A stretch of DNA of 64,000 bases from positions 55,117-119,116 of the forward strand of contig CAKOLB010000004.1 of NCBI GenBank assembly GCA_934096125.1, given 5' to 3'. Shown in pieces: positions 42,090 to 62,195 of this stretch. Source of the DNA: an uncultured Bacilli bacterium (GTDB lineage: Bacteria > Bacillota_I > Bacilli_A > RF39 > UBA660). The notes beneath the pieces are model-generated. The model worked only from the letters and a program-made list of their open reading frames with translations. It did no database searches and was not told the origin of the DNA. Numbering within the stretch: the stretch's first letter is position 1; each line of letters opens with the position of its first letter. Position numbers and translations under genes: made by a program.

Positions 42090-42200
42090 AGATGGTAATA
42101 GTTGAAATAGCATAAGGTGCTAAGCAGATAAAACAATGTTAAATAATTTTTGGGATATTTCGTTTTTTGAAAAAAGGCATATAATATCTTAGGTGATAAC

Positions 42201-42247
42201 ATGAATGATAGAGCTTTAAAAAAGGTGGTTTTGGATGCCGGACATGG
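42201..42247 (+). pseudogene. split Amidase_3-LysM hydrolase gene, segment 1 of 3
   Basis: ATG 42201 encodes MNDRALKKVVLDAGHG. The frame then enters unrelated sequence and stops at TGA 42270-42272. Confidence 0.8.
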
Positions 42248-42269
42248 GAGATACTGTTATTCTACACAA
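42242..42269. repeat. attL of element 1 (core ACATGG plus P' arm TTATTCTACACAA)
   Basis: TTATTCTACACAA (42257-42269) is the exact inverted complement of TTGTGTAGAATAA at 50551-50563. Confidence 0.7.
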
Positions 42270-42317
42270 TGAATAGAAACTATCAGAACTAGTTGATTTA
42301 CATGAAAATTAAACTTT

Positions 42318-42345
42318 AAAGAGATATTTGAAAAAGTATCTCTTT
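42318..42345 (+). promoter_or_regulatory. perfect 9-bp inverted repeat upstream of mob (candidate oriT hairpin or insulating terminator)
   Basis: AAAGAGATA-N10-TATCTCTTT followed by TTGCATATT, 29 nt before the mob start. Confidence 0.3.
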
Positions 42346-42373
42346 TTGCATATTAAAAAAAAGGGGGAATTAT

Positions 42374-43633: not shown

Positions 43634-43699
43634 GTCAAAACAAAAACGGACTTTTTTCGTGGTATAATAAAGAAAAACTTGTTATTTTTGGAGGTAGTT

Positions 43700-45910
43700 A
43701 TGAACAAAGAAAATAAAATTATAAATTTTAAAAATGAAGATTCAAAGAAAAATATTTCTTTAGAATTAGATAAAAAAATGATTTTTATTTACGGTAAAAA
43801 TGGTAGTGGCAAAACAACTTTTTCTAGATCGAACGATTTGGATAAAAAATATGTATTTAATGAAGACTTCGTATATAAAAATGTTTATATAATAGACGCT
43901 GAAGGAGCAAAAATTGATTCAGGTGTTAAAAATAATTTTTCAGAGTTGCTTGTTGGAGAAGATGTTGTTCTATTAAAAGAAAAACAAAATAAATTAGAAG
44001 AAATATATAAAGAATTAAATACTAAAAGTAATGATAATGAAACATTTATCAATTCTAGTTTAGCAAGTAATGGTATTCCAAACAGTTATAATTTTTTAAA
44101 GGAAAAAGTTGATGAAACTTTTAATTATGATGAAACAAAAACAATCGAAGAACAAATGGAGATATATAAGAGCGATTTAGAATTGGAACAGACTATTACA
44201 AATGATAAAGAGTTAGAAATCAATGTGAATCAAATAAAGAAACATGAGAATATTAAATTATTAATAGAAAAAATAAAAAAAATACCATTGTTAGAGGAGT
44301 TTCTTTTTTCAGAGGATTATCCAATACTATTGAAACTTAATTCTGATTTAGACATTATTAATACAAATATTCAAAACATTAAAAGTTTAGAAGAGTTAGG
44401 GAAAAAGAAAAGGGTAGAAAAAAATGATTTTTCTATTATAAGAGATTGTATAACATTACAAGAAAAAGTGGGAACTGATATTTGTGTATTATGTGGTAAT
44501 ACTGAAATTAAAGCAGGTATAGAAGAATGGAAGAAAATATTTCAGGACAAAACAGTAAATTTAAAAACGAAAGTAATATCAGAATTAAATGATATTCTAA
44601 AAAATTGTAAAACTATTATTGATGATAGAAAAGTATATGAACCTGTTGCACCTGGTACTATTAACAATATAATAATATTTATAGGAATTATAGAAAACGC
44701 TTTAAAAGAAGTGAATTTAGGCAATGTTTTAGAAATTAAATATCAAGAAATCGTAAGAGAAAAATATACTGAAGACATTATTCAAAAGTATAAAACTATT
44801 GCAAATTACGTATTAAAGAAATATAAAGATAAAACTATTTTCTTAAATTCATCACTTAAAAGTGTAGGTGGTAAAATAAAAGTAATAAAAGAAAACATAG
44901 AAAAAATTTTAAAGCTAAATGCTGACACCCATAAAGAATCAATAAACTCTATTCTTAAAGATTTGGGATTAGATAAAGAAATAACCGTTGGTGTTGATAG
45001 ACTAGGCGGTAAAATAAAATATTCACTAAATGTAGTTAATAACAATTTATCAAAATTGAGTGATGGGCAAAAACATAAATTAGCTTTGGCAATATTTTTA
45101 AATACTATTAAAAATGAAGATTTAAAAGGTAAAACAGTTGTGTTTGACGACCCTGTTGTTGCGCTTGATGAACTAGGATATCACTTTTTTAAACAATATG
45201 TTATAAAAAATATAATGAATAATCCTAACATAGAAGAATGCCCTAATCTTATTATATTAACTCACAACTTTAATTATCTTTATATACAAACAAGTAATAT
45301 AATAATTAGTCCTAATTTACAAGACAATACAAAAATATTGAAATTAAATTCAGATGGATTTAAAGAATTAGATTTTGAATTGTTTAAATTAGATGATATC
45401 GCATTATTTAAAAAATGCTTAGATAATATTAAGTATGAAGATGAATTGATAGACTTAAGTAGTTTATACAATAAAGTTTTTAGAGAATTTTTGGATTTAA
45501 AACTAAGAATACTTGGAAATCCATTAAATGGTAATCCAGCAGAAGAAATAAAGATAATAGTATCTGATGAACAAACAAGAAAATTGTTGCAGGAACAAAG
45601 TAATAAGTTAAGTAGTTATTCAAAAAATAAAAATATAACAATAGAAGAATCGAAAGAAGGTTTTTGCTTATTATCAGATATGCTAAAGACAATAGGGTTT
45701 GATGAATATATTCTGCCTCAAAACATTGATTCAATTAAAAATATTGTAAAGAGGGAAGAAATAATTTATTCAGATATATTTTATATTATTCATGAAATAG
45801 CAAATATTTTAAGAAATGAAGATAATAAATATAAAAATTATATAAATTATTTAAATCATCCAAGAATATCATTTACTAAAAATATGATGTCAACATCTAT
45901 GGATGCATAG
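43700..45910 (+). CDS. AAA_13 / RloC-PrrC-like ABC-type ATPase with zinc-hook insert (putative anticodon nuclease)
   Basis: Walker A GKNGSGKTT and a long K/E-rich coiled insert with CVLC (CxxC). Signature LSDGQKHKLA, Walker B VVFDDPVVALDE, and H-loop LTHN. The ~200-aa C-terminal domain has FREFLD and YLNHPR. Start at ATG 43700 behind GGAGG. Confidence 0.55.
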   Translation: MNKENKIINFKNEDSKKNISLELDKKMIFIYGKNGSGKTTFSRSNDLDKKYVFNEDFVYKNVYIIDAEGAKIDSGVKNNFSELLVGEDVVLLKEKQNKLEEIYKELNTKSNDNETFINSSLASNGIPNSYNFLKEKVDETFNYDETKTIEEQMEIYKSDLELEQTITNDKELEINVNQIKKHENIKLLIEKIKKIPLLEEFLFSEDYPILLKLNSDLDIINTNIQNIKSLEELGKKKRVEKNDFSIIRDCITLQEKVGTDICVLCGNTEIKAGIEEWKKIFQDKTVNLKTKVISELNDILKNCKTIIDDRKVYEPVAPGTINNIIIFIGIIENALKEVNLGNVLEIKYQEIVREKYTEDIIQKYKTIANYVLKKYKDKTIFLNSSLKSVGGKIKVIKENIEKILKLNADTHKESINSILKDLGLDKEITVGVDRLGGKIKYSLNVVNNNLSKLSDGQKHKLALAIFLNTIKNEDLKGKTVVFDDPVVALDELGYHFFKQYVIKNIMNNPNIEECPNLIILTHNFNYLYIQTSNIIISPNLQDNTKILKLNSDGFKELDFELFKLDDIALFKKCLDNIKYEDELIDLSSLYNKVFREFLDLKLRILGNPLNGNPAEEIKIIVSDEQTRKLLQEQSNKLSSYSKNKNITIEESKEGFCLLSDMLKTIGFDEYILPQNIDSIKNIVKREEIIYSDIFYIIHEIANILRNEDNKYKNYINYLNHPRISFTKNMMSTSMDA

Positions 45911-46068
45911 TCTTTTTTGAAAAATGGATATATAAAGATACATTTTAGTAACACACTACGATATTGACAGAGCCAATAACGATGTGTGCCAAGGGGATTG
46001 TCCCTTTGGAAACCCTATTAGCTCTATCGCCACTTTCATTGCTAAAGCAACAAAACGTGCCACGAGCT

Positions 46069-46103
46069 AAAAAGACTGACAAAAATTAATTGTCAGTCTT
46101 TTC
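46069..46103. terminator. bidirectional hairpin terminator
   Basis: AAAGACTGACAA-N7-TTGTCAGTCTTT perfect 12-bp stem flanked by A and T runs. The stop of the minus-strand XRE gene lies in the loop. Confidence 0.65.
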
Positions 46104-46361
46104 TGATGGAATATCATCAAATAGTTGTCTGATGTCTATTCCTAAAGCATCAGCAAATTTACCTATGGTTTCTAATGTTGGAGTTTTATCAATGCTTAAG
46201 CATTCTAAATCTCGAACATATCCATGAGTCAGTTCAGTTAAATCAGCTAATTCTTGAAGTGTATAACCACGTATAAGTCTGTATTTTCGAATGTTTTTTC
46301 TAACTTGAATAGATAAAATTGTTTTTGAATATCTTCTCATAGAAGTTATACACCTCCTCAC
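46086..46361 (-). CDS. XRE-family HTH transcriptional regulator
   Basis: HTH region LIRGYTLQELADLTELTHGYVRDLE. 91 aa. Confidence 0.75.
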   Translation of the reverse strand: MRRCITSMRRYSKTILSIQVRKNIRKYRLIRGYTLQELADLTELTHGYVRDLECLSIDKTPTLETIGKFADALGIDIRQLFDDIPSEKTDN

Positions 46362-46448
46362 ATTTAAATTATTTCATAAAAATTTTAAAAAATATGTCGC
46401 CTGACAGAAGTTTTTGTGATATAATTAAAATGAAAGGAGACTGCTTTT

Positions 46449-46925
46449 ATGAAGAAATGCAAATATTGTCAAACTGAAATTGACTCAAAAGCAAAAATTT
46501 GCCCAAACTGTAAAAAGAAACAAGGTAAACCAAAATGGTTAATAGCTTTAATTGTTATTATTGTAATAATGATTATTGCATCTGTTGCTGGAGGTAACGA
46601 AGAGAATGCTAAGGAAGGAAATGTTTCAAACGGAGGTAATAAGCCAACAGAAAAATTTACTTATGAAGTAACAAAACAATATGCAGATGAATATGGTATG
46701 TCTTATTATATAGAAGGTAGTGTAAAAAATAATAAGGATAAAGATTATTCATATGTTCAAATTGAATTTGTTTGCTATGATGCAGAAGGCAATAACCTTG
46801 GAACTGCTATTGATAATACAAATAATTTACTAGGAAATCAGACTTGGAAATTTAAAGCAATGGCTATGTTTAGTGATGCTGAAACTGTTGATCATTGCGA
46901 TTATCATGAAATAACAAGCTGGTAA
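46449..46925 (+). CDS. zinc-ribbon / TM / FxLYD-like domain protein
   Basis: CKYC...CPNC ribbon, one TM, and an extracellular beta-rich domain with IEFVCYDAEGNNLG (FxLYD-like). Confidence 0.45.
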   Translation: MKKCKYCQTEIDSKAKICPNCKKKQGKPKWLIALIVIIVIMIIASVAGGNEENAKEGNVSNGGNKPTEKFTYEVTKQYADEYGMSYYIEGSVKNNKDKDYSYVQIEFVCYDAEGNNLGTAIDNTNNLLGNQTWKFKAMAMFSDAETVDHCDYHEITSW

Positions 46926-47035
46926 AATAGTTGGAAGTCTTTTTAAGACTTCTTTTTGTTAGATTTTTTTACCAAAATAGTCGTTTTATATTTGTTTTAT
47001 GTTATAATAATATTTAATGAAAAAAGGGTGGTTTT

Positions 47036-47335
47036 ATGTATCAATTATTGAGTTTATTCAGTTTTCTTATTAGGGCATATTTGTGTTATTGCACAATAGA
47101 TAATATTCCAATATTAGCTAATCCGATATTAAATAGTATTTTAGGGGAAGTAATATCCTTATATACTATTTTGTGGGCAATAAGTTATTTTGTTGTTGGA
47201 AGATTTTATGATAAAGGTTCTGAACCCTTGTTAGGTGTTATTTTATATTTTATTGTATATGTTGTAATTCTGGGAATTACATATTTATTGTTGTTATTAT
47301 TAACATATATTGGAGTTTTACCAATAGTTATATAA
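47036..47335 (+). CDS. small hypothetical membrane protein
   Basis: 99 aa with three hydrophobic segments. No family recognised. Confidence 0.4.
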   Translation: MYQLLSLFSFLIRAYLCYCTIDNIPILANPILNSILGEVISLYTILWAISYFVVGRFYDKGSEPLLGVILYFIVYVVILGITYLLLLLLTYIGVLPIVI

Positions 47336-47364
47336 ATAAAAAAACTTATCGTTGTGATAAGTTT

Positions 47365-47904
47365 TTATAGGTTTATTCTATCATCAGGTAATTTTGAGTA
47401 ATCATATTTTTCAGCACACATTTCTAAATCTTCGTAAATAGAGGTTAATTGTGCTAATATTTTTTCGGGTGGAAGTAATTCTTTATAATAATCATAATCT
47501 TTAAGTAAAAGCATCATTTGGAATATTCTTGTTCTGCAATCAGCAACTTTAGTTCTTTTCTCATAAGAATCTTCTAATAAATCCAATTGAGATTCTCTAT
47601 ATTGTTTTACTAATTCCTTTATATTTTTAGGAGTTTTATGTTTTGAAGTGTCTTTGAAACTATCTAGAATATCACTATAACCAGCAGTAGTTAAAAGAAA
47701 TTCTAAACTTATTTCTAATACTTCAGATAAACTTCTTAACATATCTATATCTGGTTTTTTAATATTACCTTTTTCAAGTTCATTATATGTAGAGTGATGT
47801 GTATTGATTAAACGAGCTACTTTTCTTTGAGAGTAGCCTTTTTTTGTTCTAGCAGTCCTTAATATTTTACTTAATTCTTCAAGATTAGCATTATTATTTT
47901 CCAT
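47365..47904 (-). CDS. XRE-family HTH regulator with C-terminal extension (element repressor candidate)
   Basis: HTH region KKGYSQRKVARLINTHHSTYNELEKGN. Divergent from the HTH_36-like ORF across an operator-bearing intergenic region. Confidence 0.7.
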   Translation of the reverse strand: MENNNANLEELSKILRTARTKKGYSQRKVARLINTHHSTYNELEKGNIKKPDIDMLRSLSEVLEISLEFLLTTAGYSDILDSFKDTSKHKTPKNIKELVKQYRESQLDLLEDSYEKRTKVADCRTRIFQMMLLLKDYDYYKELLPPEKILAQLTSIYEDLEMCAEKYDYSKLPDDRINL

Positions 47905-47971
47905 TTAAACCACCTCTAAAATGCTTTCTTCCAATAACATAATACCATAACGAAAATTAAAAAGCAATAAT

Positions 47972-48037
47972 TTTGTCGGTTATTCTTGACAAAATTATAA
48001 TTACAATGTATATTATAGTTGTCGGGCAATCTTGACA
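47972..48037. promoter_or_regulatory. two copies of a 20-bp operator-like site overlapping -35 elements
   Basis: TTGTCGGTTATTCTTGACAA (47972-47991) and TTGTCGGGCAATCTTGACAA (48018-48037). Each is a TTGTC...GACAA inverted repeat containing TTGACA. The first TTGACA has a 17-nt spacer to TATATT. Confidence 0.5.
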
Positions 48038-48134
48038 AAAAAGGGGGATAGTAATAAAGTAGATTGCTAATGCGACTAATGTTCTTTGAAAATTTACACA
48101 AGTCTTTAAAGGTTAATTAAAAGGGGGTGATAGC

Positions 48135-48638
48135 ATAACAGAATCTATAAAAGATGGGTTTTGGATTATACCTGCAAAAGTAGGTATAGATGATGCACTC
48201 ACATTACAAGATAAATTACTATATGCTCAAATCTTATCATTAACAAGACAAGATGGATTCTGTTTTGCTACTAATTCTTATCTATCTAATTTAAATAATG
48301 TTACTCCAAAAACAATTTCTAACAGTATTTCTAATCTTAAAAAAAATAATTATATACGAGTTGAATATCACAAGGAAAAAATAAATAAAGATAAAAGAAA
48401 AATATTTGTAACTGATAAGGGGGTATGGAAAACAAATCCTGGGGATATAGAAAAAAATGTTAATACCGGTATGGAAGATAATTTCCAATATAATAATATA
48501 AAGAATAAAAAGATAAAAAAATATAATACCAATAATAATGTTCCTTGGTGGCTAGATAAAGAAATTAAAGAAAATCCTGCATCTCTAGAAGAACAAGCAG
48601 AGATGGAAGCACTACTAAGCGAATTTAAAAAAGATTGA
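48135..48638 (+). CDS. HTH_36-type winged-helix protein (plasmid/ICE replication- or regulation-associated), no canonical start codon
   Basis: The frame is open from 48117 to TGA 48636-48638 and encodes ...WIIPAKVGIDDALTLQDKLLYAQILSLTRQDGFCFATNSYLSNLNNVTPKTISNSISNLKKNNYIRVEY. The strong SD AAGGGGG (48121-48127) lies 7 nt before ATA 48135. The first in-frame ATG/GTG/TTG is not until about 48470. Confidence 0.55.
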   Translation: MTESIKDGFWIIPAKVGIDDALTLQDKLLYAQILSLTRQDGFCFATNSYLSNLNNVTPKTISNSISNLKKNNYIRVEYHKEKINKDKRKIFVTDKGVWKTNPGDIEKNVNTGMEDNFQYNNIKNKKIKKYNTNNNVPWWLDKEIKENPASLEEQAEMEALLSEFKKD

Positions 48639-48714
48639 AAAGGAGTTGGTTTTATAAATAAATACAAGACTAAATCATAAAATTTAATAAAAAGGAAAAG
48701 GGGGAATTATAAGA

Positions 48715-48846
48715 ATGGAGGTAGTACTTAAGGCAAAACACACATTTAAAACTGATATATCAAACGAAGAATTATTTAGAGATAGATTTAACGAGATATT
48801 GTTAAAAGTTATATTGCATCTTGAGCAAAATTACCAAAGTAGTTAA
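48715..48846 (+). CDS. small ORF (43 aa) immediately upstream of recombinase 1
   Basis: ATG 48715 preceded by AAAAGGGGG. Encodes MEVVLKAKHTFKTDISNEELFRDRFNEILLKVILHLEQNYQSS. Too short to appear in the track. Confidence 0.35.
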   Translation: MEVVLKAKHTFKTDISNEELFRDRFNEILLKVILHLEQNYQSS

Positions 48847-48937
48847 AAAAATTATAAATAACTATCAAAAAGGGGTATAATATAAGTTGTAGTCGATTTA
48901 GTTCTGATAGTTATACACAGAATTGGAGGATATAACT

Positions 48938-50533
48938 ATGAGACTAAGAGTTGGTATTTATGGGAGGTTATCACAAGAGGATATAGATAAGATAAACAAA
49001 GAAGATGAAAGTGAAAGTATCCAAAATCAAAAAAGAATGTTATTAGAGTATGCTTTAAAAAATGATTGGGATGTAGTTGATATTTATATTGATGAAGATT
49101 ATTCAGGTGCTGGAGTTTATAGACCAGAGTTTGAGAGAATGCTAAAAGATTGTGAAAATGGAAAACTAGATATAGTTTTATGTAAGAGTCAATCAAGATT
49201 CTCGAGAGATATGGAAATAATTGAAAGATATATAAATAACAAATTTAAAGAATGGAATGTTAGATTTATTAGTTTAGTAGATAATATAGATACTGATAAT
49301 AAATCTAATAAGAAATCTATTCAAATATTAGGACTAACTAATGAATGGTATTTAGAAGATTTATCAGATAACATTAAAAGAACAATTAGGAATAAAAAAG
49401 AGTCTGGACAATTTACTGGTTCATTTGCTCCCTATGGTTATTTAAGAAGTGAAGAAGATAAACACAAATTAGTTATTGATCCTATTGCTTCAATCATTGT
49501 TAAAAAGATATTTGAAATGTATAAACAAGGTAATGGTTATACTAAAATAGCAACTTATTTGAATGATACTAATGTTCCTAGTCCTTATGAACACAAAAAA
49601 GCAAGTGGTAGTAAATTTGTATGTGGAAATGTTGGAAAGGAAAAATCATATTGGTATTCAGATACAATTGCTAAAATCTTAAAAGATGAAGTATATATTG
49701 GAAATCTAGTACAAGGAAAAACAAGGCATATAAGTTATAAAAATAAAAAATCAGTTCCTGTTCCTAAAGAAGATTGGATAATTGTTAAAAACACACACGA
49801 ACCTATAATAGATGAAGATACTTGGAATATAGTTTCTGCTAAATTTAAAGGTAGGACAAAGCCAAGTAAATCTGGGGAAATTCATATGTTTACTAAAAAG
49901 GTTTATTGTGATTGTTGCAAAAAAATATTTTATAATGGTTATTCTAAATCAGGAAATGGGAACAAGCATTATTATTTAACTTGTAAGTCTAGAAAATCAG
50001 GGGTGTTTTGTGAAAATAATCTATCTATTAGAGTAGATAAATTAAAAGACTTTATCCTTAATGAGATTAATGAATATATCAAAGTTTATCATAATTCTAA
50101 AGCTTTAAATGAGAAATACCAAAAATTAAATACTAAGAATAATAAAAATGAGATTCAAGAACAAATTAAAACTTTGGAAAAACAACAAACTGAATTAGAA
50201 AAATCACAAAGTAAAAAGAATTCTTATTTAAGAAAATTATATGAAGATAGAATAGAGGGTTTCATTACTGATGAGCAATACAAAGCTTTTAGTAAAGACT
50301 ATGATGATGAATTAAATGAATTGCAAAACAGAATTCAATTAATAAAAGATGAAATCACTCTCTTAAATCAAAGGCACAGTGATATGATTGATAGAGATAA
50401 AATATTTAATAAATATAAATCTATAAAGGAATTAGATAGAAGTATATTAGATGATTTTATAGAAAAAATATATATCGGTGCAGTAGATAAAGAAACGAAT
50501 GAACGAGAAATAAATATTGTATGGGCCATATAA
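48938..50533 (+). CDS. large serine recombinase (resolvase domain, recombinase domain, zinc ribbon, coiled coil)
   Basis: VGIYGRLSQED catalytic-Ser motif, SIQNQ, YIDEDYSG, and SRFSRD. Cys cluster CDCC...C...C. C-terminal coiled coil with FIEKIYIG...REINIVW (DUF4368-like). Start at ATG 48938 behind GGAGG. Confidence 0.9.
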   Translation: MRLRVGIYGRLSQEDIDKINKEDESESIQNQKRMLLEYALKNDWDVVDIYIDEDYSGAGVYRPEFERMLKDCENGKLDIVLCKSQSRFSRDMEIIERYINNKFKEWNVRFISLVDNIDTDNKSNKKSIQILGLTNEWYLEDLSDNIKRTIRNKKESGQFTGSFAPYGYLRSEEDKHKLVIDPIASIIVKKIFEMYKQGNGYTKIATYLNDTNVPSPYEHKKASGSKFVCGNVGKEKSYWYSDTIAKILKDEVYIGNLVQGKTRHISYKNKKSVPVPKEDWIIVKNTHEPIIDEDTWNIVSAKFKGRTKPSKSGEIHMFTKKVYCDCCKKIFYNGYSKSGNGNKHYYLTCKSRKSGVFCENNLSIRVDKLKDFILNEINEYIKVYHNSKALNEKYQKLNTKNNKNEIQEQIKTLEKQQTELEKSQSKKNSYLRKLYEDRIEGFITDEQYKAFSKDYDDELNELQNRIQLIKDEITLLNQRHSDMIDRDKIFNKYKSIKELDRSILDDFIEKIYIGAVDKETNEREINIVWAI

Positions 50534-50550
50534 TTTAGTCCATACAGGAC

Positions 50551-50580
50551 TTGTGTAGAATAAACATAACCTCCACATGG
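50551..50580. repeat. attR of element 1 (P arm TTGTGTAGAATAA plus core ACATGG)
   Basis: Lies 18-47 nt after the recombinase stop. The arm is the inverted repeat of 42257-42269, and the core is identical to 42242-42247. Confidence 0.7.
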
Positions 50581-50806
50581 TGGTGATGATCCGGGGACTA
50601 TTGCAAATGGAATAACTGAAAAAGATTATACTTTGAAGATAACAAATTATATTCACAACAGATTAGATGAACTTGGAGTGCCAAATAAATTATCGAGGAG
50701 TACTGATGAGACTTTAGATGCCAGTAGTAGGCCACAGAGAATACAAAGTCTTTATGGAAATGGGAGTGATGTGATTGTTGTGTCTAATCACATAAATGCA
50801 GGGGGA
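50581..50806 (+). pseudogene. split Amidase_3-LysM hydrolase gene, segment 2 of 3
   Basis: Continues in frame from segment 1: (G)GDDPGTIANGITEKDYTLKITNYIHNRLDELGVPNKLSRSTDETLDASSRPQRIQSLYGNGSDVIVVSNHINAGG. It then diverges and stops at TAA 50816-50818. Confidence 0.8.
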
Positions 50807-50828
50807 CAGGACGCGTAATATGTGGTTA
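50785..50828. repeat. attL of element 2 (B arm TAATCACATA, core GGA, P' arm TATGTGGTTA)
   Basis: TAATCACATA at 50785-50794, GGA at 50804-50806, and TATGTGGTTA at 50819-50828. The last is the inverted form of TAACCACATA. Confidence 0.6.
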
Positions 50829-50928
50829 ATCGTAGGCGCAGTGTATAACTTTAATAAGCTTCTTATTTTACTGTATATGATGGTATAATAGATATATCAA
50901 ATAACTTTAAAGATGAGAGGTGAAAAGA

Positions 50929-51840
50929 ATGTTATATATAACTGGTGATACTCATGGAGATTTTTATAGATTTGGTCATTTAGGATTAAATGAAGGTGAT
51001 ATTATGATTATCTTAGGGGATGTGGGTATTAATTATTACTTAGATGAATATGATAAAAAGTTAAAGGAAAGATTAAAAAGATATAATTTTAAATTTTTCT
51101 GTATTCAAGGTAATCATGAAAAAAGACCAGAAAATATTTCAAGTTACCACGAAGTGGAAATGTTTGGCGGTAAAGTATTTGTAGAAGATGAATATCCTAA
51201 TTTAGTATTTGCTAAAAATGGAGAACTTTATAATATTGATGACAAAAGTATTTTAGTAATAGGTGGAGCTTATTCTATTGATAAAGATTATAGAATAAGT
51301 AAAGGATATCCTTGGTTCAAAGATGAACAATTAACTGAGAAAGAGAGACTAAATATATTGGACGAGTATTCTGGTAAACATGTGGATATAATTTTATCTC
51401 ATACTTGTCCATTAAGATATGAACCTAAAGAAAGCTTTAAATTAAGTTTGCCACAGATTGCGATAGATAAATCTATGGAGTATTTTCTAAATGAAGTAGA
51501 GCAAAGAGTAGATTATGGTAAATGGTATTGTGGACATTATCATTTAGAAAAAATTGTGGACAAGTTAGAGTTTATGTTTGGAAGAATTAAAAGTGTTGAC
51601 ACAGGAGAATTTATTCCTAAATATGATTTCCATAATGGCTACAAAATAGTTAGAGATGTATGTAGTCAAAAAGATTATAAATATTGTCCTGAATGTAAAG
51701 GAGATAATATAATTATAGAAAAAGGTGAAGGACATAATATTAATGGTTTAGATTTTATTGCTATCATTTGTAATGATTGTAAAAAAGTTTATGGATTTAA
51801 TGATGTTAATTATAAACGTAATTGTCCTAAAGAATTGTAA
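50929..51840 (+). CDS. calcineurin-like metallophosphoesterase with C-terminal zinc ribbon
   Basis: GDTHGD, GDVG, and QGNHE motifs, plus SHTCP. C-terminal CPECKG...CNDCKK. Confidence 0.7.
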   Translation: MLYITGDTHGDFYRFGHLGLNEGDIMIILGDVGINYYLDEYDKKLKERLKRYNFKFFCIQGNHEKRPENISSYHEVEMFGGKVFVEDEYPNLVFAKNGELYNIDDKSILVIGGAYSIDKDYRISKGYPWFKDEQLTEKERLNILDEYSGKHVDIILSHTCPLRYEPKESFKLSLPQIAIDKSMEYFLNEVEQRVDYGKWYCGHYHLEKIVDKLEFMFGRIKSVDTGEFIPKYDFHNGYKIVRDVCSQKDYKYCPECKGDNIIIEKGEGHNINGLDFIAIICNDCKKVYGFNDVNYKRNCPKEL

Positions 51841-51914
51841 CTGTGTTTACCAAATTTTAAAATTTATGCTATAATTAAGATGTAATAATTATTTGACTAA
51901 GTGTGGTGAGTAGT

Positions 51915-52550
51915 ATGGAGTATAGAAAATATTCATTTAGACATGCAGAAGATATTTTTAAAAACGATAAGGATTTTACTTATTTATGGAATGAAATTTT
52001 GGAAGTGCTTGATAGTATAAGCGATGATGATTTAATTAATGAATTTAACATTGAAACTAGAAAAGCAAAAAGCATTTCCGAAGCAATTAATAAATTAATT
52101 GCAAAAAGGCTAAGTGAAAAAGGATGGCATGAACAAAGTTACATTTTTGCTGACCCTGATTATTCTGATAATAAAGGTACATGGAGATTAGATTTTGCAA
52201 AAGATAATATTGCAATTGAAGTTGCATTTAATCATGGAGGAAATGTATCTTGGAATTTAATTAAGCCAGTATTATCTAGTGAATTAAATCATGTTAAAAA
52301 GGCAATACAAACTCAAGCTGGCGTTGTCATAACAGCAACTGATGCTATGAAAAAAGCCGGTGGATTTGATAATGCTATCGGTACCTATGAAAAATATGTT
52401 GAATATCTAAAACCATTAAATAATTTGTTAACCACACCTATGATGATAATAGGATTAGAACCACCAAAAAAGTTTACTATTGAGCAGAAAAAAGAAGATG
52501 GTAAAATGGTTGGACATGTTAAATTAAAAGAAGAAGATAATAACTTTTAG
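51915..52550 (+). CDS. BglII/BstYI-fold restriction endonuclease-like protein (orphan)
   Basis: WRLDFAKDNIAIEVAFNH...SSELNH...GVVITAT...TYEKY...MMIIGL parallels the BglII core DIDFGKRDTLVEVQFSN...SELFH...IIITK...LVGL as I recall it. The D-x8-E spacing is kept, but the E-V-Q glutamine position is Ala. Confidence 0.55.
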   Translation: MEYRKYSFRHAEDIFKNDKDFTYLWNEILEVLDSISDDDLINEFNIETRKAKSISEAINKLIAKRLSEKGWHEQSYIFADPDYSDNKGTWRLDFAKDNIAIEVAFNHGGNVSWNLIKPVLSSELNHVKKAIQTQAGVVITATDAMKKAGGFDNAIGTYEKYVEYLKPLNNLLTTPMMIIGLEPPKKFTIEQKKEDGKMVGHVKLKEEDNNF

Positions 52551-52601
52551 ACTTACAATTTTGTGAGTCTTTTTATTTTGAAAAAGAAAGGATACGATAT
52601 T

Positions 52602-52895
52602 ATGAAAATAAAAACAAATAGAGAAGAGGGTTATGTAGTTATGGGTAACTATCATCTAAGAGATAAAAAATTAAGCTTAAAAGCAAAAGGACTATTATCT
52701 ATAATGTTGTCATTACCAGACACATGGTGTTATTCCACGCTAGGATTATCTAGTATTTGTGTTGAAAGCAGGGATACAGTTAGAAATATATTAAAAGAAT
52801 TAAAGGAAGCAAAATATTTAAAGGTAGTTGAAAATAGAGATGAAAATGGTAGATTTAATTATGAATATGTAATTTATGAAAAACCCTATATGTAA
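52602..52895 (+). CDS. HTH_36-type winged-helix protein
   Basis: LSLKAKGLLSIMLSLPDTWCYSTLGLSSICVESRDTVRNILKELKEAKYLKV. Same family pattern as the ORF at 48135. Start set to ATG 52602. Confidence 0.55.
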   Translation: MKIKTNREEGYVVMGNYHLRDKKLSLKAKGLLSIMLSLPDTWCYSTLGLSSICVESRDTVRNILKELKEAKYLKVVENRDENGRFNYEYVIYEKPYM

Positions 52896-53069
52896 TAATC
52901 CATGGTATCATTACGGTTACATGGATTTCCGTATGCGGTTATTTATTCACAATAAATTATTTAGAAGTAATTAATAAAACAAATAGATAAAGTCGATAAA
53001 ACCTCTATCGATTCAAAAAAAGAGAAGGTTTTATAGTATAATTTCTCTTTTCATTGGTTAATTTAGCTA

Positions 53070-54467
53070 TTAAATAAATTCTTTTAATATATTTTCTAAG
53101 TATTTACTATTTAACCAAAAACAATGCTTTGTATATTCAGCTAATCCTGTTAACTTGTCTTTTACAGGTAATGGCAAAGTATCTTTTGAGTCTCTAGCAT
53201 GTGGTCTAACATGGCAAACTCCATTATCCCCGATTCCTGGAAAGTTAGTATTTCTTTTACCCATATTATCAATTGATTTAATAATATTTCCAGATAAAAT
53301 AATGTTTTTTGTATTATTCCACATATTTTTCACTTCATTTTCAAGTGTTAGTTCTGGCATGTTCCATAATTTTATACCACTAAAGATATAATCATTATCT
53401 TTCTTTTTAAATATAAAGAACATGTATTTTGTAGTTTCTAATTCTTCTTTTAACTTTGATTCTTCCCAATCAGTTGTTTTAAAATCCATATAATTGAAAT
53501 ATGGAAAAGGCATAGATTCTTTAATGTGTCCATTTTCTTCAACTCTGATTGTTCTTGGAACTATATTTGCTTTTTGGAATTCATCAGTATCACGAAGTCT
53601 AGATTTAACATTAAACATTCTAGCTATCAGTATTCCATTTAAATTTTTTGCATTAGAATCAATATTAAATTCATGCATTAATTGTTTTTGAGTTTTCCCC
53701 TGATATTTCTTGGTAACATTTTCAACAAATTCAGTAAATGATTCACCAGCATTTTTAATAACTTTTTCAACATCTTCATAATTTCCAATATATTTTCTAA
53801 CGAGTCCTGTCATATAAGAAGTTTTTAAACAAAATGCTCTTTGCTTTGCTTTAATTGATGAAAAAGGTTGTTCTCTAACGGATTTTTTATTTGCTCCTTT
53901 TGTACAAGCACCAAGATACATTGTATCTGCTTCTGATATCTCATGGGCTTTTCCTTGTTTAATTTTATTAATTATTGTTTCCCAATCCTTAATAATTATT
54001 GGTAAATCTTCTTTTGGAAATGTAAATAATAACTCGTGTGTTATTCTTAAATCATTTTTATTTTTGTGAGGTTCGTAAAAATACCAAATTATTTGAATTT
54101 TATTATTTTTAAACCAAAAATGACTAGAGTAAAATTCATTTTTATATTCATCCATATAATTAATTATGTTTAGAACAAGTCTTTCTTTAGCTGATAAAGT
54201 ATTGTCTTTGTTTTTCTTATACGGTGTAACTTTAAGTTCTATTCCCGCATCAATAAAGTCAGGCGCAGATATTGAATTAATGTTGTATCCATATACATTA
54301 GTTTCAAATAAATGACCAAAGAAAGCTTTATTAAACTTTTCATCATCTTTGTTATATTCATTGTTATAAATAGTTGTTACATTCATATTATTTAATTCTT
54401 TAAAAGTTTTTCCTAATGCACTTTTAGCTAAAATTTGAATTTCATCTTTTGTGTAACTTTTTGCCAT
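53070..54467 (-). CDS. MutH/Sau3AI-family type II restriction endonuclease
   Basis: N-terminal MutH-like core APDFIDAGIELKVTP (D...E-x-K). The size fits the two-domain Sau3AI type. Divergently paired with a C5 methyltransferase. Confidence 0.7.
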   Translation of the reverse strand: MAKSYTKDEIQILAKSALGKTFKELNNMNVTTIYNNEYNKDDEKFNKAFFGHLFETNVYGYNINSISAPDFIDAGIELKVTPYKKNKDNTLSAKERLVLNIINYMDEYKNEFYSSHFWFKNNKIQIIWYFYEPHKNKNDLRITHELLFTFPKEDLPIIIKDWETIINKIKQGKAHEISEADTMYLGACTKGANKKSVREQPFSSIKAKQRAFCLKTSYMTGLVRKYIGNYEDVEKVIKNAGESFTEFVENVTKKYQGKTQKQLMHEFNIDSNAKNLNGILIARMFNVKSRLRDTDEFQKANIVPRTIRVEENGHIKESMPFPYFNYMDFKTTDWEESKLKEELETTKYMFFIFKKKDNDYIFSGIKLWNMPELTLENEVKNMWNNTKNIILSGNIIKSIDNMGKRNTNFPGIGDNGVCHVRPHARDSKDTLPLPVKDKLTGLAEYTKHCFWLNSKYLENILKEFI

Positions 54468-54636
54468 AAAAATTTCCTTTCGATCTTGTTTTTATCTCAA
54501 AAATAATTTAAAATATATATATAGTGTTGATCTTTTTAAAATATTATTTTATAATTAATATGTAAGAAGTTGATCTTTTCGCTTAAATATATTATAATAT
54601 ATTTAAATATGTTTAACAATTATTAGGAGGCGTTTT

Positions 54637-55875
54637 ATGCAAAAAACAGTAGTAGAATTATTTGCCGGTGTTGGTGGATTTAGATGTGGATTAAATAATG
54701 TAAAATTAAAAGATAATAAAGTTATTGAAAAAGGTAATTGGAATTTTGTGTGGGCGAATCAATGGGAACCTTCTACTAAAACACAAGAGGCTTTTGAATG
54801 CTATTCAAAAAGATTTGGAAAGGATGATGTTAGTAATGTAGATATATTTCAAGTAAATAAAAAAGAGATACCTAATCATACTTTATTAGTTGGTGGTTTT
54901 CCATGTCAAGATTATTCTGTTGCACAGACACTATCTAATAGCAAAGGAATTGATGGAAAAAAAGGTGTTTTGTGGTGGGCAATTGCAGATATATTAAAAG
55001 TTAAGAAACCTCCATTTGTGTTTTTAGAAAATGTTGATCGCTTACTTCTTTCGCCAGCGAGTCAAAGAGGCAGAGATTTTGGAATAATTTTGAGAAGTTT
55101 TTATGAAAATGGATATGATTTAGAATGGCGAGTTATCAATGCGGGAGAATATGGATTTCAACAAAAACGTAGGAGAATTTATATAATTGCATATCACAAA
55201 TCAACTAAATATTGTAAGAAAATGAGAAAAATTGATAAGAAAAATATATTACTTAAGGAAGGTATTTTCATAAAACAGTTTCCTGTAAAAGAGAAAGAGT
55301 TTAACTCAAATGTATCAAGTATTTCAGAATATAAAGATTTAGTCGATGTTAGTGATAATTTTAAAAACCAATTTTATAATTCTGGAGTTATGATAAATGG
55401 TGAAATATATACTGCCAAATTAGAACATAATTGCGATAGTGTATATCAGTTAGGCAATTTAATAGAAACTAATAAGGTTGATGAAAAATATTTCCTTTCA
55501 AAAGATAGAATTGAGAAATTTAGAATATTAAAGGGAAGTAAAAGAATACCTAGAAAAAAGCCAAATGGAGATGATTACATTTATTCTGAAGGTTCAATGC
55601 CATTTCCTGATAATCTAAATGTTCCTGCTAGAACAATGCTGACTTCAGAAAGTGGAACTAGCAGAATGACACATGTTATAGAGGACTATAGAACTAAAAA
55701 ATTAAGATTTTTAACACCATTAGAGTGTGAAAGAATTAATGGATTTCCAGATAATTGGACAAATACTGGGATGAGTGATAAGAAACGATATTTCATGATG
55801 GGTAACGCTTTAGTAGTAAATGTTGTTGAAAAAATAGGGATTGAATTGGAAAAAATAGTAGAAATGGAAGAGTAA
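54637..55875 (+). CDS. DNA (cytosine-5)-methyltransferase, Sau3AI-type (GATC specificity inferred)
   Basis: Motif I ELFAGVGGF, motif IV GGFPCQDYS, motif VI LENVDRLL, motif VIII QQKRRRIYIIA, and motif X GNALVV. WANQWEPS and SPASQRGRDF resemble M.Sau3AI-like enzymes. Confidence 0.85.
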   Translation: MQKTVVELFAGVGGFRCGLNNVKLKDNKVIEKGNWNFVWANQWEPSTKTQEAFECYSKRFGKDDVSNVDIFQVNKKEIPNHTLLVGGFPCQDYSVAQTLSNSKGIDGKKGVLWWAIADILKVKKPPFVFLENVDRLLLSPASQRGRDFGIILRSFYENGYDLEWRVINAGEYGFQQKRRRIYIIAYHKSTKYCKKMRKIDKKNILLKEGIFIKQFPVKEKEFNSNVSSISEYKDLVDVSDNFKNQFYNSGVMINGEIYTAKLEHNCDSVYQLGNLIETNKVDEKYFLSKDRIEKFRILKGSKRIPRKKPNGDDYIYSEGSMPFPDNLNVPARTMLTSESGTSRMTHVIEDYRTKKLRFLTPLECERINGFPDNWTNTGMSDKKRYFMMGNALVVNVVEKIGIELEKIVEMEE

Positions 55876-55984
55876 ATGAAAAAATGTTAAAATTTGGTAA
55901 TTTATCTAAATAGTGTTATAATTTTATACAGAAGATATGCAGTATTTGTCTTTTTAAGATGGATACTGCATTTTTTTGAAGTAG

Positions 55985-56950
55985 GTGGTAGTATTGGATT
56001 CACTTAATTATGAAGTTTTTAAAAAAATAAAGAAATATTATAATGATAATTGCAAACCTTTAATTTTTGTTGGAGAAAAATTATTATCGCAGAATAACAA
56101 ATGTAAAATGTATTTTTGTGATGTTGATTTAAATCAAGAAAAAGAAAATTATAGAAAAGTTTTTCAAGAATATTTGGCACTTTATGTTAGAAATCATGAT
56201 TTGCTAAAATATTATGATAAGATTATAAAAAGTGAAACAGAAGATGAAATTTCAGAAGCTTTAATTTATTATGGAAATGATTTGTGGAATAATACCGTAT
56301 TGATAACTACAACTACACCAGAGACTTTAGGGATATATGGAGAAGCCATTAATGATTTTTATTTAAATATTGTTAAGAATGAAAATATAATTATCACTTA
56401 TTCAGCAAAAAGGGGGTATGGTGAACGTAATATAAAAGGGGTAGATGTAGTTGCATGTACTTGGAAAAAAGATAATCTTGTACTAATATTTTCTGAGTGT
56501 AAATTTGTCGAATCAATATATAAGGCGTCGTGTGGTTTATATAATGATATAAAGGGAACTCAATATGAATTGGCACATATAAGTAAAGATTATATAAACG
56601 GATATTCTACTTATATTGTTGATAATGCTCATTCAATTTTTGCAGAGAGTAATAATTCAGATAAAATTATAGATGTTTTGGACAAATTGAATAGTAGGAT
56701 AATAAATGGAAACAAGGCGATAGATGTGTTTAATGAATTAAACATAAAAATTCAATTTAATTTCTTTGCAATTTACTGTGATAATAAATTTACACCAGAT
56801 GAAAGACAAATAATGTTTGAAAAAGTATATAATGCTTTTTATGAAAATGTAAAATTAACAGGTATTAAAAATTATGATATGGAAATTGTGTATATACCTA
56901 TTAAAAATACAAGCTCTGTGGTAAAGGAATGTATGAGACAATGGAATTGA
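55985..56950 (+). CDS. HamA-like (DUF1837-type) PD-(D/E)xK nuclease candidate, first gene of a Hachiman-like pair
   Basis: 321 aa, with GVDVVACTWKKDNLVLIFSECKF giving a D...E-x-K arrangement. Overlaps the downstream helicase gene by 22 nt. Confidence 0.5.
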   Translation: MVVLDSLNYEVFKKIKKYYNDNCKPLIFVGEKLLSQNNKCKMYFCDVDLNQEKENYRKVFQEYLALYVRNHDLLKYYDKIIKSETEDEISEALIYYGNDLWNNTVLITTTTPETLGIYGEAINDFYLNIVKNENIIITYSAKRGYGERNIKGVDVVACTWKKDNLVLIFSECKFVESIYKASCGLYNDIKGTQYELAHISKDYINGYSTYIVDNAHSIFAESNNSDKIIDVLDKLNSRIINGNKAIDVFNELNIKIQFNFFAIYCDNKFTPDERQIMFEKVYNAFYENVKLTGIKNYDMEIVYIPIKNTSSVVKECMRQWN

Positions 56951-59322
56951 CACGAAATACAATTGTAAAGAAAATAAATTTATTTTCAATGGAAAGGAAT
57001 AATAAAGAATTAATAAATCTACTATGTGATATTTTAGAAAGTAAAAATTACATGGATAATTATGATCTTATTTTAATTATAATAAATATTGCCGAACTTT
57101 ATGGTTATCAAGAATTTTTTAATAATTTTGATGCAAATAGTATACCTAAATATAACGTGCATGCAATATCTAATGATATTAGAAAAAATCTATATAAAAG
57201 CAAAAAAGGTAATAATATATATTATAATTCTGGACAATTATCTTTATTAAAAGAATTATCACTATATGATAAGCTTTTTATATCAGCTCCCACGTCATTT
57301 GGTAAAACCAGTTTAGTTTTAGAGCATATAGCAATGAATAACTCAATATATAAAACTATTATTTTTTTAGCTCCAACTAATGCATTAGTAGAAGAATTGT
57401 ATCTAAAATTTTTAAAATTAAATAAAGAATGTAATTTAAATTATGATGTAATAACAATGCCAAAAAATAAAAATAATAATACAATATGGATATTAACACC
57501 AGAGAAATTTTTACTTTTGGTTGAAGAAAAAAGTATAGATTTTGATTTGATAGTTATGGATGAGGCTTATAAAATTGAAAATGAAGAATCAATTGATAGA
57601 AAAGATATTTTAAATTCTAGGTCAAGCAAATATAGGAAAGTAATGGAATATATGGCTAATTCTAATTCGAAGATTATATTTTTATCTCCATATACTTATA
57701 ATAAGGCGCCATCTATGACAAGATTCTTAAAAAAATATAGTATCAAGGATATTGACAGGAATATTAATTATGTAAAAAAAGACATAATAGATATTTATGA
57801 TAGCAAAAGTTATAAAAGTAATTTTTCCAATAGTATATTTAGTATTAAAAAAGGTGATTCTGGGATTAAAAAAGCAATGGCAGCTGTTCCCTATTTATCT
57901 GATAATACAATTATATATGTAAAATATCCAAGTGAGGCAATAAAAGTTTTAGAATTAATGCCTAATGAAAAAGCAAGTATAGATAATGAAAGATTTAAAA
58001 AATTTTTGAACCATTTAAAAGAAAATTATTTATTTGAAGACAGCAATTGGTATATTATAGATGCTCTAGAAAAGGGAATTGGCATATATGTATCACCTAT
58101 TCCTCGATATATAAAAAAAGAAATAATATATTTATTTAATAAGGGAATAATAAAAAAACTTATAGTTACAACTGCATTTGCTGAAGGAGTTAATAGTTCA
58201 GCTAAGAACATAATTATAACAAATAGAATAACAGGATCTAATAAAAAACTAACTAATTTGGATATATTGAATTTAAGTGGTAGAGCAGGCAGATTTGGTG
58301 TATATAGCAAAGGAAAAGTTTTTTCTGCAGTTGAAGAAGTAAGTGATATTTTAAGAAAATCATCTGAAAATGGAGTAATTATAAATAATCCTAATTACGA
58401 ATTAGCAAGTGATATTATACCTAGAACTGATTATGAAATCGATATGATAGATGATTATCTATTAAATGAAGAAGAAAAAAATATAAAGGAAACCACAAAA
58501 AAAAGGCAATTAAATTTTAATTTGACCAACGATGATTTAAATATAGCTTTATCAATTGCAAATGAAATAAAAATCGATGTATATTCATATTTTTTTGAAA
58601 CAATTAACAATGGAAAAATTCAAGATATAAGATTTAATAATATTAAAAATTTATTGTCTACAGAGAAAAATGATATTATAAAATCAATTACATTTATTTT
58701 TAACGAATTAAAAAATGCAGATATTCCAATAGTTTCAGATTTTGGTGATATTAATCCATTTAATAGTAAAGGTGATTTTATTTGGGGCATTTTTTACGGA
58801 ATCCACTCTTCAGGAAATATTAGAGATGTTTTGAAATCAAGAAAAGGCTTTATTTTAAAACAGTTAAGTGAAATTGAAAAAATATTAAATTTAAAACTTA
58901 AAAATTTTAATAATAAAGAAATAGAAAAAATATTACGTGAGTACGATAAAAAATGGATATACGATTATTTAACTAAAGGTGAAATTGATGATGCAAAACT
59001 ATATAATGGTGCATTTAAATTTATATCAAACATAATTGAATATAGAATACCATTTTATATTGGATTGTATATATCAGTTTTTAAAATGTTTTGTAGAAAG
59101 AATAATTTAAATTATGATTTTAATTTTGATATTGTTGAAATATCTACATCATTAGAAAATAAAAATATAGAAAAAAAGTATTCTGATATGTTGGAATTTG
59201 GCATACCATTAGATACAATCAAAAAGATAAATAAATTTAAAAATGATAATAATATTTTTGAAATATTAGATGATTATGAAAAAATTATGTTAAGTGAATA
59301 TAATTACTATTTTGATAAATAA
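56929..59322 (+). CDS. HamB-like SF2 (Ski2/Hel308-like) helicase
   Basis: Motif I SAPTSFGKTS, Ia LAPTNALVEE, II VMDEAYK, V TTAFAEGVN, and VI LSGRAGRFG. 797 aa with a long C-terminal domain. Confidence 0.6.
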   Translation: MYETMELTRNTIVKKINLFSMERNNKELINLLCDILESKNYMDNYDLILIIINIAELYGYQEFFNNFDANSIPKYNVHAISNDIRKNLYKSKKGNNIYYNSGQLSLLKELSLYDKLFISAPTSFGKTSLVLEHIAMNNSIYKTIIFLAPTNALVEELYLKFLKLNKECNLNYDVITMPKNKNNNTIWILTPEKFLLLVEEKSIDFDLIVMDEAYKIENEESIDRKDILNSRSSKYRKVMEYMANSNSKIIFLSPYTYNKAPSMTRFLKKYSIKDIDRNINYVKKDIIDIYDSKSYKSNFSNSIFSIKKGDSGIKKAMAAVPYLSDNTIIYVKYPSEAIKVLELMPNEKASIDNERFKKFLNHLKENYLFEDSNWYIIDALEKGIGIYVSPIPRYIKKEIIYLFNKGIIKKLIVTTAFAEGVNSSAKNIIITNRITGSNKKLTNLDILNLSGRAGRFGVYSKGKVFSAVEEVSDILRKSSENGVIINNPNYELASDIIPRTDYEIDMIDDYLLNEEEKNIKETTKKRQLNFNLTNDDLNIALSIANEIKIDVYSYFFETINNGKIQDIRFNNIKNLLSTEKNDIIKSITFIFNELKNADIPIVSDFGDINPFNSKGDFIWGIFYGIHSSGNIRDVLKSRKGFILKQLSEIEKILNLKLKNFNNKEIEKILREYDKKWIYDYLTKGEIDDAKLYNGAFKFISNIIEYRIPFYIGLYISVFKMFCRKNNLNYDFNFDIVEISTSLENKNIEKKYSDMLEFGIPLDTIKKINKFKNDNNIFEILDDYEKIMLSEYNYYFDK

Positions 59323-59333
59323 AATCATGTCCG

Positions 59334-59362
59334 TTGACTGTCCTATAAATTTATGGTAAAAT
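59334..59362 (+). promoter_or_regulatory. near-consensus sigma-A promoter in the hamB-to-59637 intergenic region
   Basis: TTGACT (59334-59339), 17-nt spacer ending in TGG, then TAAAAT (59357-59362). Confidence 0.5.
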
Positions 59363-59636
59363 GGTAATATAGGATAAGTGTAAGAGATGCAAATTTATGA
59401 GAGGATTTTCCCTCTTTTTTTGTGTCTTTAAAAAAAATTATCTTTTTGAAAGAAAGGTAAATTTTATCTAAAATATTCTAAACTGTCGGAGACTATTAGT
59501 GGGTTTTAGGGATATTCCCTAACAAGCTAGATGGGTGTGTATACACCATGCTTGATATATTATATTACACGGGTATGTAACCTCAAAATAGGATTTAATG
59601 GTAATCTGAAATGTGGTATGAAATGAAAGGAGAAAT

Positions 59637-60209: not shown

Positions 60210-60312
60210 CTAGATTAGTTTGGAATATAACTAATTTTTTTATGTCCTAATTTTGATAATAAAGTCTTATAGTTGTTCTTATTTCATAAAATGAAAGGAG
60301 AGGTGTAGATTA

Positions 60313-60405: not shown

Positions 60406-60463
60406 GAGTTTGTGATATAATGATATTGCTTATTGAAGTTATACACGTTGGAAGGAGTAGTAA

Positions 60464-62089: not shown

Positions 62090-62195
62090 ATAATAAAAAT
62101 AGGGTGGTAAAATTTGGTAATCACACAATCTTACCATCCCCTATACTATTTTTAGAAAAAATAAAAACGCAGTAAAATCAAGAAAAATGATAGCC

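Follow-up and report, generated by a model that had tools for sequence, protein, structure and literature searches.

Into which base pairs of a bacterial amidase gene did a mobile island recombine, and which bases on either side of that point might its recombinase read? The window considered here, a stretch of 64,000 nucleotides (64 kb) with a G+C content of 28.5% from an uncultured low-GC gut bacterium of the Bacilli, raises this question at two junctions: the DNA to the left of position 50806 and the DNA to the right of 62218 belong to one gene, which according to Pfam encodes an Amidase_3 domain and four LysM repeats. Judging from comparison across related loci, it is highly probable that the intervening DNA, called element 2 here, is a large serine recombinase (LSR) island that integrated by attP x attB recombination into the H-I-N-A-G-G-G-D-G-A-E codons of this chromosomal gene, with strand exchange at the non-palindromic dinucleotide GG and with a motif, putatively read by the zinc-ribbon domain (ZD) of the enzyme, that is displaced in attB. 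Cleavage with a 2-bp stagger is presumed in this mechanism, as is excision, if and when it takes place; in LSR systems the staggered double-strand cut goes with a phosphoserine link and subunit rotation, and excision is controlled by a recombination directionality factor (RDF).

Element 2 extends from 50806 to 62220 on the forward strand (11,415 bp, one core copy included). Its ends carry a conserved backbone (50806-51840, 52566-53001 and 59453-62218) with variable cargo between, and among the cargo Pfam recognizes a metallophosphoesterase, a BglII-like endonuclease, a helix-turn-helix (HTH) protein, a MutH/Sau3AI-like endonuclease, a C5 DNA methylase and a DEAD/ResIII helicase. Element 2 is a restriction-modification (RM) and defence island, not a prophage. 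The sole recombinase among its annotated open reading frames (ORFs) is a serine recombinase of 541 aa, encoded on the forward strand at 60464-62089, with Resolvase (PF00239, 3.1e-18), Recombinase (PF07508, 7.2e-23) and Zn_ribbon_recom (PF13408, 2.8e-8) domains. The N terminus of this enzyme carries the R-L-S-E-S-D serine motif and aligns to the catalytic domains of TnpX and TP901-1, and the solved structure closest to its catalytic domain is that of TnpX (2mhc, E = 9.5e-31). A Pfam search finds no DUF4368 in the enzyme, and no relaxase is present among the ORFs of the element. Directly 5' of the recombinase, in every family member examined, lies a forward-strand ORF of 190 aa (59637-60209) without a Pfam match, which is a candidate directionality factor, accessory protein or regulator.

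The preliminary description had already recognized that a serine-recombinase element splits the amidase gene, and this reading is borne out. The fragment to the left of element 2 (50578-50805, forward strand, reading GGDDPG...SNHINAGG) has no start codon of its own, and a second LSR gene (48923-50533) ends just 5' of it. The true start codon lies further upstream, in a short forward-strand piece at 42201-42244 (MNDRALKKVVLDAGH) that stops at the CA core of another element, element 1; the rest of Amidase_3 and the four LysM repeats follow at 62221-63133, also on the forward strand. With the start codon at 42201-42244 and both elements in between, the amidase gene is therefore in three pieces. 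When these are joined in silico at the cores of both elements, they give an Amidase_3 and LysM ORF of 394 aa that aligns without gaps to intact homologues. Element 1 (42245-50577, 8,333 bp) lies in G-H-G-G codons near the amidase start and encodes a Mob_Pre relaxase (42374-43633), an AAA_13 protein (43679-45910), an HTH protein on the minus strand (47365-47904) and the LSR at 48923-50533, which contains DUF4368 and is 33% identical to the enzyme of element 2. The attL and attR of element 1 share ACATGG, and its rebuilt attP is a dyad about CA (42243-4/50576-7) with 21/34 matches and with arms TTGTGTAGAATAA placed 12 nt from the CA core. Element 1 is a second, independent LSR element and looks like an integrative mobilisable element of the Tn4451 type.

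Several minor observations concern the amidase gene itself. At 42170-42200, just 5' of the amidase ribosome-binding site (TAGGTGAT), lies CATATAATAT, which is conserved at the same place in the loci L001-L021; it holds a perfect TATAAT and is also similar to the -10 boxes of mother-cell sigma factors (CATA...TA), and it could bear on whether or not the amidase is a sporulation gene. As further context, related contigs carry some genes of sporulation type (CotZ and a SleB-like Hydrolase_2). In addition, a second, distant Amidase_3 paralogue at 27277-27441 of the window, with 40% identity to the N-terminal part, appears uninterrupted.

The position of the exchange was approached by comparing the window with 21 empty sites, with 11 further occupied genome loci and with some 30 loci that encode related recombinases. 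A scan of one genome per species yielded loci in metagenome-assembled genomes (MAGs) of uncultured gut Bacilli: 21 loci have an amidase that is uninterrupted at the site, and in 12 others the match begins or breaks off precisely at the junction. All 21 empty sites read AAT GCN GGN GGT GGN GAT GGN GCN GAR, that is N-A-G-G-G-D-G-A-E, with the second G replaced by S in two of them. Moreover, exactly three residues (GGG, GSG or GAG) stand between NA and DGAE in 116 of 116 intact homologous proteins, and none has four glycines, so that the intact reading at the site is HINAGGGDGAE. Neither the genome scan nor the protein search contained an empty site of the same species, and the protein search contained no intact amidase of the window's species; among intact homologues, identity reaches about 85% over the catalytic domain and about 73% overall.

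In the window, attL (..GCA GGG GG A CAG GAC..) and attR (..TCC GGA GG T GGC GAT..) share two dinucleotides in the register that yields three glycines, and both are GG. The one that we take to be the core is formed by bases 1 and 2 of the second Gly codon, at 50804-50805 in attL and 62219-62220 in attR, both on the forward strand; attL and attR share this 2-bp core without a long duplication. At the attR side, all of the 11 other occupied genome loci, which represent at least six unrelated element ends, adjoin the host at the same GG (62219-62220). In these loci the GG is preceded by CTTCGGG, GTCTGGA, TCGCGA, TCTTGT, TTCCCA or TCACCA rather than by host GGN, and the three preceding bases are therefore element DNA. 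The bases that flank the core differ between the junctions (G-GG-A in attL, A-GG-T in attR), and across loci each follows either host or element. Thus base 50803, immediately 5' of the core, differs among hosts that carry the same element end (G in the window versus A in L078; G in L069 versus A in L074), and the identity of base 50806, immediately 3' of it, depends on the element lineage (A, T or C) and not on the host. The GGA at 62216-62218 does not change between hosts whose downstream codons differ, and becomes CGA in the family whose recombinase is 87% identical to that of the window.

The symmetry of the rebuilt attP points to the same dinucleotide. Only with the GG core at 50804-5/62219-20 do the arms form a dyad, with matches at 15/32 positions and the 9/10 motif in register, and this is the best of seven shifted centres. 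An element with a recombinase 61% identical to that of the window and with different arms (L022, CCTACATTCTT) also has an attP dyad about the same GG, with 19/34 matches. The other occupied loci, the covariation with host or element, the dyad register and the symmetry about the core in these further attP sites, that of element 1 included, are independent of one another in selecting this core, and the placement of the exchange at GG of the second Gly codon is in our view a solid correction, reached by comparison. Neither an excised circle nor an intact attP, which would allow the core to be observed rather than deduced, was present in metagenome_contigs or viral_contigs when these were searched with the pattern TAATCACATA-N20-32-TATGTGGTTA; that search returned six further attL sites together with unrelated chance matches.

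With this core the four half-sites can be delimited. The left, or P, arm of attP is the right end of element 2 (62193-62218, forward strand) and consists of CTAATCACATA followed by a 13-nt spacer, AAATCTTTCCGGA; the right, or P', arm is the left end of the element (50806-50831, forward strand) and consists of a 13-nt spacer, ACAGGACGCGTAA, followed by TATGTGGTTAAT. The P' arm is conserved in eight attL sites of the element-2 family and also occurs, with a different spacer, in the family with 81% identical recombinases. The rebuilt attP is thus a dyad of the form TAATCACATA-13 nt-GG-13 nt-TATGTGGTTA, and its predicted full sequence is AGCCTAATCACATA-AAATCTTTCCGGA-GG-ACAGGACGCGTAA-TATGTGGTTAATCG, reading ...CTTTCCGGAGGACAGGACG / CTTTCCGGAGGACAGG about the core if exchange occurs at 50804-50805/62219-62220. 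The predicted attB is GTGTCTAATCACATA-AATGCAGGG-GG-TGGCGATGGTGCAGAAGTAATA, where TGGCGATGGTGCAGAAGTAATA is the right, or B', arm (62221-62242, forward strand). Excision at the GG core would be expected to leave the junctions TAATCACATAAATGCAGGGGGTGGCGATGGTGC in attB and TAATCACATAAAATCTTTCCGGAGGACAGGACGCGTAATATGTGGTTA in attP.

The motif TAAYCACATA occurs at three of these half-sites. Exact copies of TAATCACATA lie on the forward strand in the attB left (B) arm (50785-50794, 9 nt from the core GG, half-site positions 11-20) and in the attP left arm (62196-62205, 13 nt from the core, half-site positions 15-24), and an inverted copy with one mismatch, TATGTGGTTA (minus strand TAACCACATA), lies in the attP right arm (50819-50828, again 13 nt from the core). 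The motif is thus 4 bp nearer the core in the left arm of attB than in attP, and the right arm of attB has no recognisable copy at the symmetric position, in agreement with the preliminary description, which had found the motif in three of the four half-sites. The distances to GGA that it reported (9, 10 and 12 nt) are correct as measured, as are the sequences and coordinates that it gave for CTAATCACATAAA, TAATCACATA, TATGTGGTTA, GGA and TATGCTCTTA; counted from the true core, the distances become 13 and 13 nt in attP and 9 nt in attB left, and the 4-bp offset was missed because they had been taken from the wrong reference point. The weak motif-like TATGCTCTTA (62243-62252) was considered as the attB right-arm copy and is ruled out: its first base is 22 nt away from the core, beyond the extent of a typical attB, and I-Y-A-L codons account for it.

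Three exact occurrences of TAAYCACATA are found in the 64-kb window, all at the junctions of element 2, where 0.69 would be expected across the window; an exact repeat of at least 13 nt between two random 60-nt segments of the window has P = 4e-4, and for a 9/10 motif match in exact dyad register P is about 0.002. In addition, in relatives with recombinases that share 96%, 87% and 81% identity with the enzyme of the window, the left arm CTAATCACATA is kept exactly 13 nt from GG, with spacers that vary (AAATCTTTCCGGA, TTTTTCTTCTCGA and TTTTTCTTCTGGA), and the right arm TATGTGGTTAA is likewise kept 13 nt from GG with a spacer that changes from ACAGGACGCGTAA to TGGAGCATCGTTT. These chance expectations, together with the conservation in relatives, show that the motif is real and not a chance match. 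A constant motif beside diverging spacers is the signature of a distal motif contacted by protein. According to Rutherford et al. (2013), in the attP structure of the LI/A118 integrase (LI being the enzyme of a Listeria innocua prophage) the zinc-ribbon domain reads a 9-bp motif at positions 16-24, and in the LI/A118 attB this motif stands at 11-19, 5 bp inward (PMC3783163). By position and by analogy with this literature, TAAYCACATA may be the motif read by the zinc-ribbon domain of the element-2 recombinase, and its 4-bp inward shift in attB may let the enzyme distinguish attB from attP, as in the A118/LI model.

One may argue that the motif in the left arm of attB is a mere by-product of coding and that the recombinase reads other bases of attB. 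The codons concerned, Ser-Asn-His-Ile-Asn, are part of the active-site motif of Amidase_3, and TAATCACATA in attB left is accordingly under coding constraint (S-N-H-I-N), so that conserved codons explain the motif in full; the missing copy in the right arm and a shift of 4 rather than 5 bp fit this argument as well. Exact motifs are also not significantly enriched in occupied sites (5/5 versus 9/16 in empty ones, p = 0.12) once the six loci that had been found through the motif itself are left out, and an initial p = 0.027 that included them was discarded. Against the argument stand the 13-nt exact identity between attB left and attP left (P = 4e-4), the inverted motif in the other attP arm, invariant across relatives with 81-96% identity, and a non-amidase pseudo-site used by the 81% family, which keeps 8/11 motif bases and 8/9 spacer bases (AATG-AGGG) at the same distance to GG. 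Hence we regard a coding by-product as unlikely, and a motif recognized in attB as in attP as the better reading.

As for the core itself, the closest competitor of the downstream GG is the other shared GG, in the first Gly codon (50801-50802 in attL, 62216-62217 in attR), at which exchange would equally give three glycines. It is a shared dinucleotide in the right register and predicts the same protein sequence for attB, but in attR the 87% family has CG at this place (CTCGA-GG), and the downstream GG is all that the remaining families at the hotspot have in common. Exchange there would also make base 50803 element-derived, yet this base differs from host to host next to one and the same element end. 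Moreover, the attP symmetry falls to 7/32, and the attP predicted from this core, CTTTCCGGGGGACAGG, has 28 nt between the motifs and is asymmetric (10/16). Exchange at the first Gly codon is therefore quite improbable, and the GG of the second codon is retained.

The preliminary description placed the crossover in the GGA shared by both junctions (50804-50806 and 62216-62218), with a GA core as in TnpX, whose core dinucleotide is GA, and with HINAGGGGDGAEV as the restored sequence. GGA does occur at both junctions, the join is in frame, and TnpX is indeed the nearest solved structure to the catalytic domain of the recombinase. However, joining at GGA gives HINAGGGGDGAE, with a fourth glycine and hence a 1-residue insertion relative to the three glycines of 21/21 empty sites and 116/116 homologues; the predicted junctions would be ...AATGCAGGGGGAGGTGGCGAT (four Gly) / ...GCAGGGGGAGGTGGCGAT for attB and ...CTTTCCGGACAGGACG / ...TTTCCGGACAGGACG for attP. 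The comparison with empty sites, which that description had itself named as the test of its proposal, places the junction elsewhere than GGA in all 21 cases, and the restored sequence HINAGGGGDGAEV falls with it. The true core lies 3 nt, or one codon, away. In addition, the attL of a sister element (L033) reads GGC GGT CAGGACG, with GGT in place of GGA and no GA possible there. The GGA at 62216-62218 consists of the last 3 nt of the attP left arm: it stays constant across hosts and is replaced by CGA, GCGA, TTGT, CCCA or ACCA in other elements, which identifies it as element DNA. Furthermore, GGA and GA registers put the attP arms out of dyad register (4-7/32 matches: 7/32 with a GA core and 4/32 with GG in the register of the preliminary description). 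A crossover in GGA thus has very little left in its favour compared with the GG core. Separately, a shared GA at 50810-11 in attL and 62225-26 in attR, in the three-residue register, was tried as the core and rejected, since it predicts NAGGQDGAE, which occurs in no homologue, and would also turn the host-like GGTGGC of all attR sites into element DNA.

That the 13-bp direct repeat CTAATCACATAAA (50784-50796 and 62195-62207) might itself be the crossover, as a tyrosine-integrase core or a target-site duplication, can practically be set aside: it is the longest exact repeat at both ends and improbable by chance (P = 4e-4), but joining there breaks the amidase frame (..SNHIKSFRRWRWC), the empty sites have AATGCNGGN between repeat and junction, dyad matches amount to 6/32, relatives retain only 11 nt of it, and the only recombinase among the annotated ORFs of element 2 is of the serine type. 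On this point the preliminary description was right, both in excluding the repeat as the crossover on the ground that a join there scrambles the amidase and in reading it as a recombinase-binding arm motif common to attP and the left arm of attB, as predicted from the sequence. The repeat would consist of the attB-left and attP-left copies of the recognition motif plus flanking bases.

The att system of element 2 is of the canonical LSR kind, and its underlying biology is standard. The closest parallel in layout is the A118/LI serine integrase: its attP is likewise an imperfect dyad of about 50 bp around a 2-bp core, each arm of this attP contains a distal motif of 9-10 bp (at about 15/16-24) that recurs nearer the core in attB, and the enzyme also has three domains (catalytic, recombinase and zinc-ribbon) (PMC3783163). 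In contrast to A118/LI, the displacement in element 2 is 4 bp rather than 5 and is seen in one attB arm only. The structure of the LI C-terminal domain gives no match to the element-2 recombinase at E<=1e-5, and LI is not a close relative.

TnpX (Tn4451/Tn4453) and TndX (Tn5397), from clostridial LSR transposons, share with element 2 hosts among the low-GC Firmicutes, and TnpX offers the closest solved catalytic domain. The analogy with TnpX drawn in the preliminary description holds for this domain (2mhc, E = 9.5e-31) and fails for the GA core, the multi-target lifestyle and DUF4368. Unlike these systems, element 2 has a GG core, its enzyme is without DUF4368, and its integrations are at one site and one look-alike pseudo-site; unlike the Tn4451 group, it has no MobV/Mob_Pre relaxase, whereas element 1 carries both Mob_Pre and an LSR with DUF4368. 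Exchange by TnpX and TndX takes place at 2-bp identical sequences (PMC5704250), and DUF4368 marks the multi-targeting, TndX-like clade of LSRs (PMC10083194).

LSR elements are also found inside genes of spore formers: skin, with SpoIVCA, in sigK; SPbeta, with SprA, in spsM; and gin in gerE (PMC4191935, PMC5499854, PMC5595907). Excision of these elements is developmental, from sporulation-specific genes, with an RDF as its trigger in the mother cell. Element 2 resembles them in lying within a coding gene and in that precise excision in silico restores the ORF, but here the amidase is interrupted twice and the cargo is of the RM and defence type instead of a prophage. In addition, Durrant et al. 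(2022) described many diverged LSRs that target one conserved coding site, for example in prolyl-isomerase or Mg-chelatase genes (PMC10083194). The LSR clade at the amidase site (about 50-96% identical) similarly uses one conserved site within a gene, and differs from those examples in its target, an Amidase_3 active-site motif in uncultured gut Bacilli.

Indeed, the same amidase GG is used by a clade of recombinases whose identity to the enzyme of the window is 96, 87, 81, 73, 61 or about 50% (L022-L032), and the attP arms clearly differ between its members while attB is constant. Within the 81-96% families, every integration examined lies either at the GG of the amidase or at a single look-alike pseudo-site. 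One could go further and propose that the amidase codons are a landing pad for a radiating LSR clade that shuttles interchangeable defence cassettes between uncultured gut Bacilli, and that the amidase becomes active only after two regulated excisions, and so is doubly gated; this would be a speculative reading that we consider rather improbable. If true, it would be a case of regulated gene integrity as for skin and SPbeta, with the addition of a series of diverged attP sites versus a constant attB, the 4-bp shift and a one-armed attB. More immediately, the junction, attB and attP of the element-2 family are now set to the base pair, as is needed for island annotation and for testing of the recombinase, and attP dyad symmetry together with empty-site comparison resolves the core among competing identities (GGA, two GGs and the 13-bp repeat). 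Moreover, the comparative set of recombinases (about 50 to 96% identity), which share core and attB and diverge in their attP arms, is usable for studying the evolution of LSR DNA specificity. The main contribution is nevertheless a correction of detail, of modest interest to specialists.

Some further observations were made at related loci. The 81% family is also found in a non-amidase site, TTTTTTATTTACATAAATGTAGGG-GG-TGGAGAAGGCTCTTGTGGTAAAT, joined at GG, in L051, L052, L056 and L058, with junctions near 2560-2625 or 1420-1485, and 11750. This site lies about 10 kb upstream of a called 393-aa amidase gene. Of the motif, 8/11 bases are retained there, as is most of the inner arm, and the sequence looks like a piece of a decayed amidase (IYINVGGGEG); it may represent a pseudo-attB or a gene relic, or it may belong to another element.

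Protein P0174, a C-terminal amidase fragment with 98% identity that stems from another occupied site, begins with MNYC-GG-DGAEV. It follows that in a different sample the same species, or a very close one, has another element at the amidase GG. In addition, near-identical recombinases and element ends enclose wholly different middles when the window (51900-59450) is compared with L034, L035, L043 and L051-L057. The cargo is a type II RM system in the window; a type I RM system with HipA and MazE in L043; a D12 methylase, ParB_N, SNF2 and PIN in L034; an N6_N4 methylase, SWI2/SNF2 and a 1580-aa SMEK_N protein in L035; and a KAP NTPase and APH in L053-L057. Judging by these comparisons, the differing middles indicate an exchange of defence-type cassettes on a fixed integration backbone. 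At sites of this kind, elements are already known to accrete in tandem (PMC7192596). In L022, two successive attR-type junctions with different element arms (10004-10005 and 13255-13256) lie 3.2 kb apart, each followed by an amidase-like GG-TGGAGATGG or GG-TGAAGATGG, which suggests tandem accretion at this hotspot as well.
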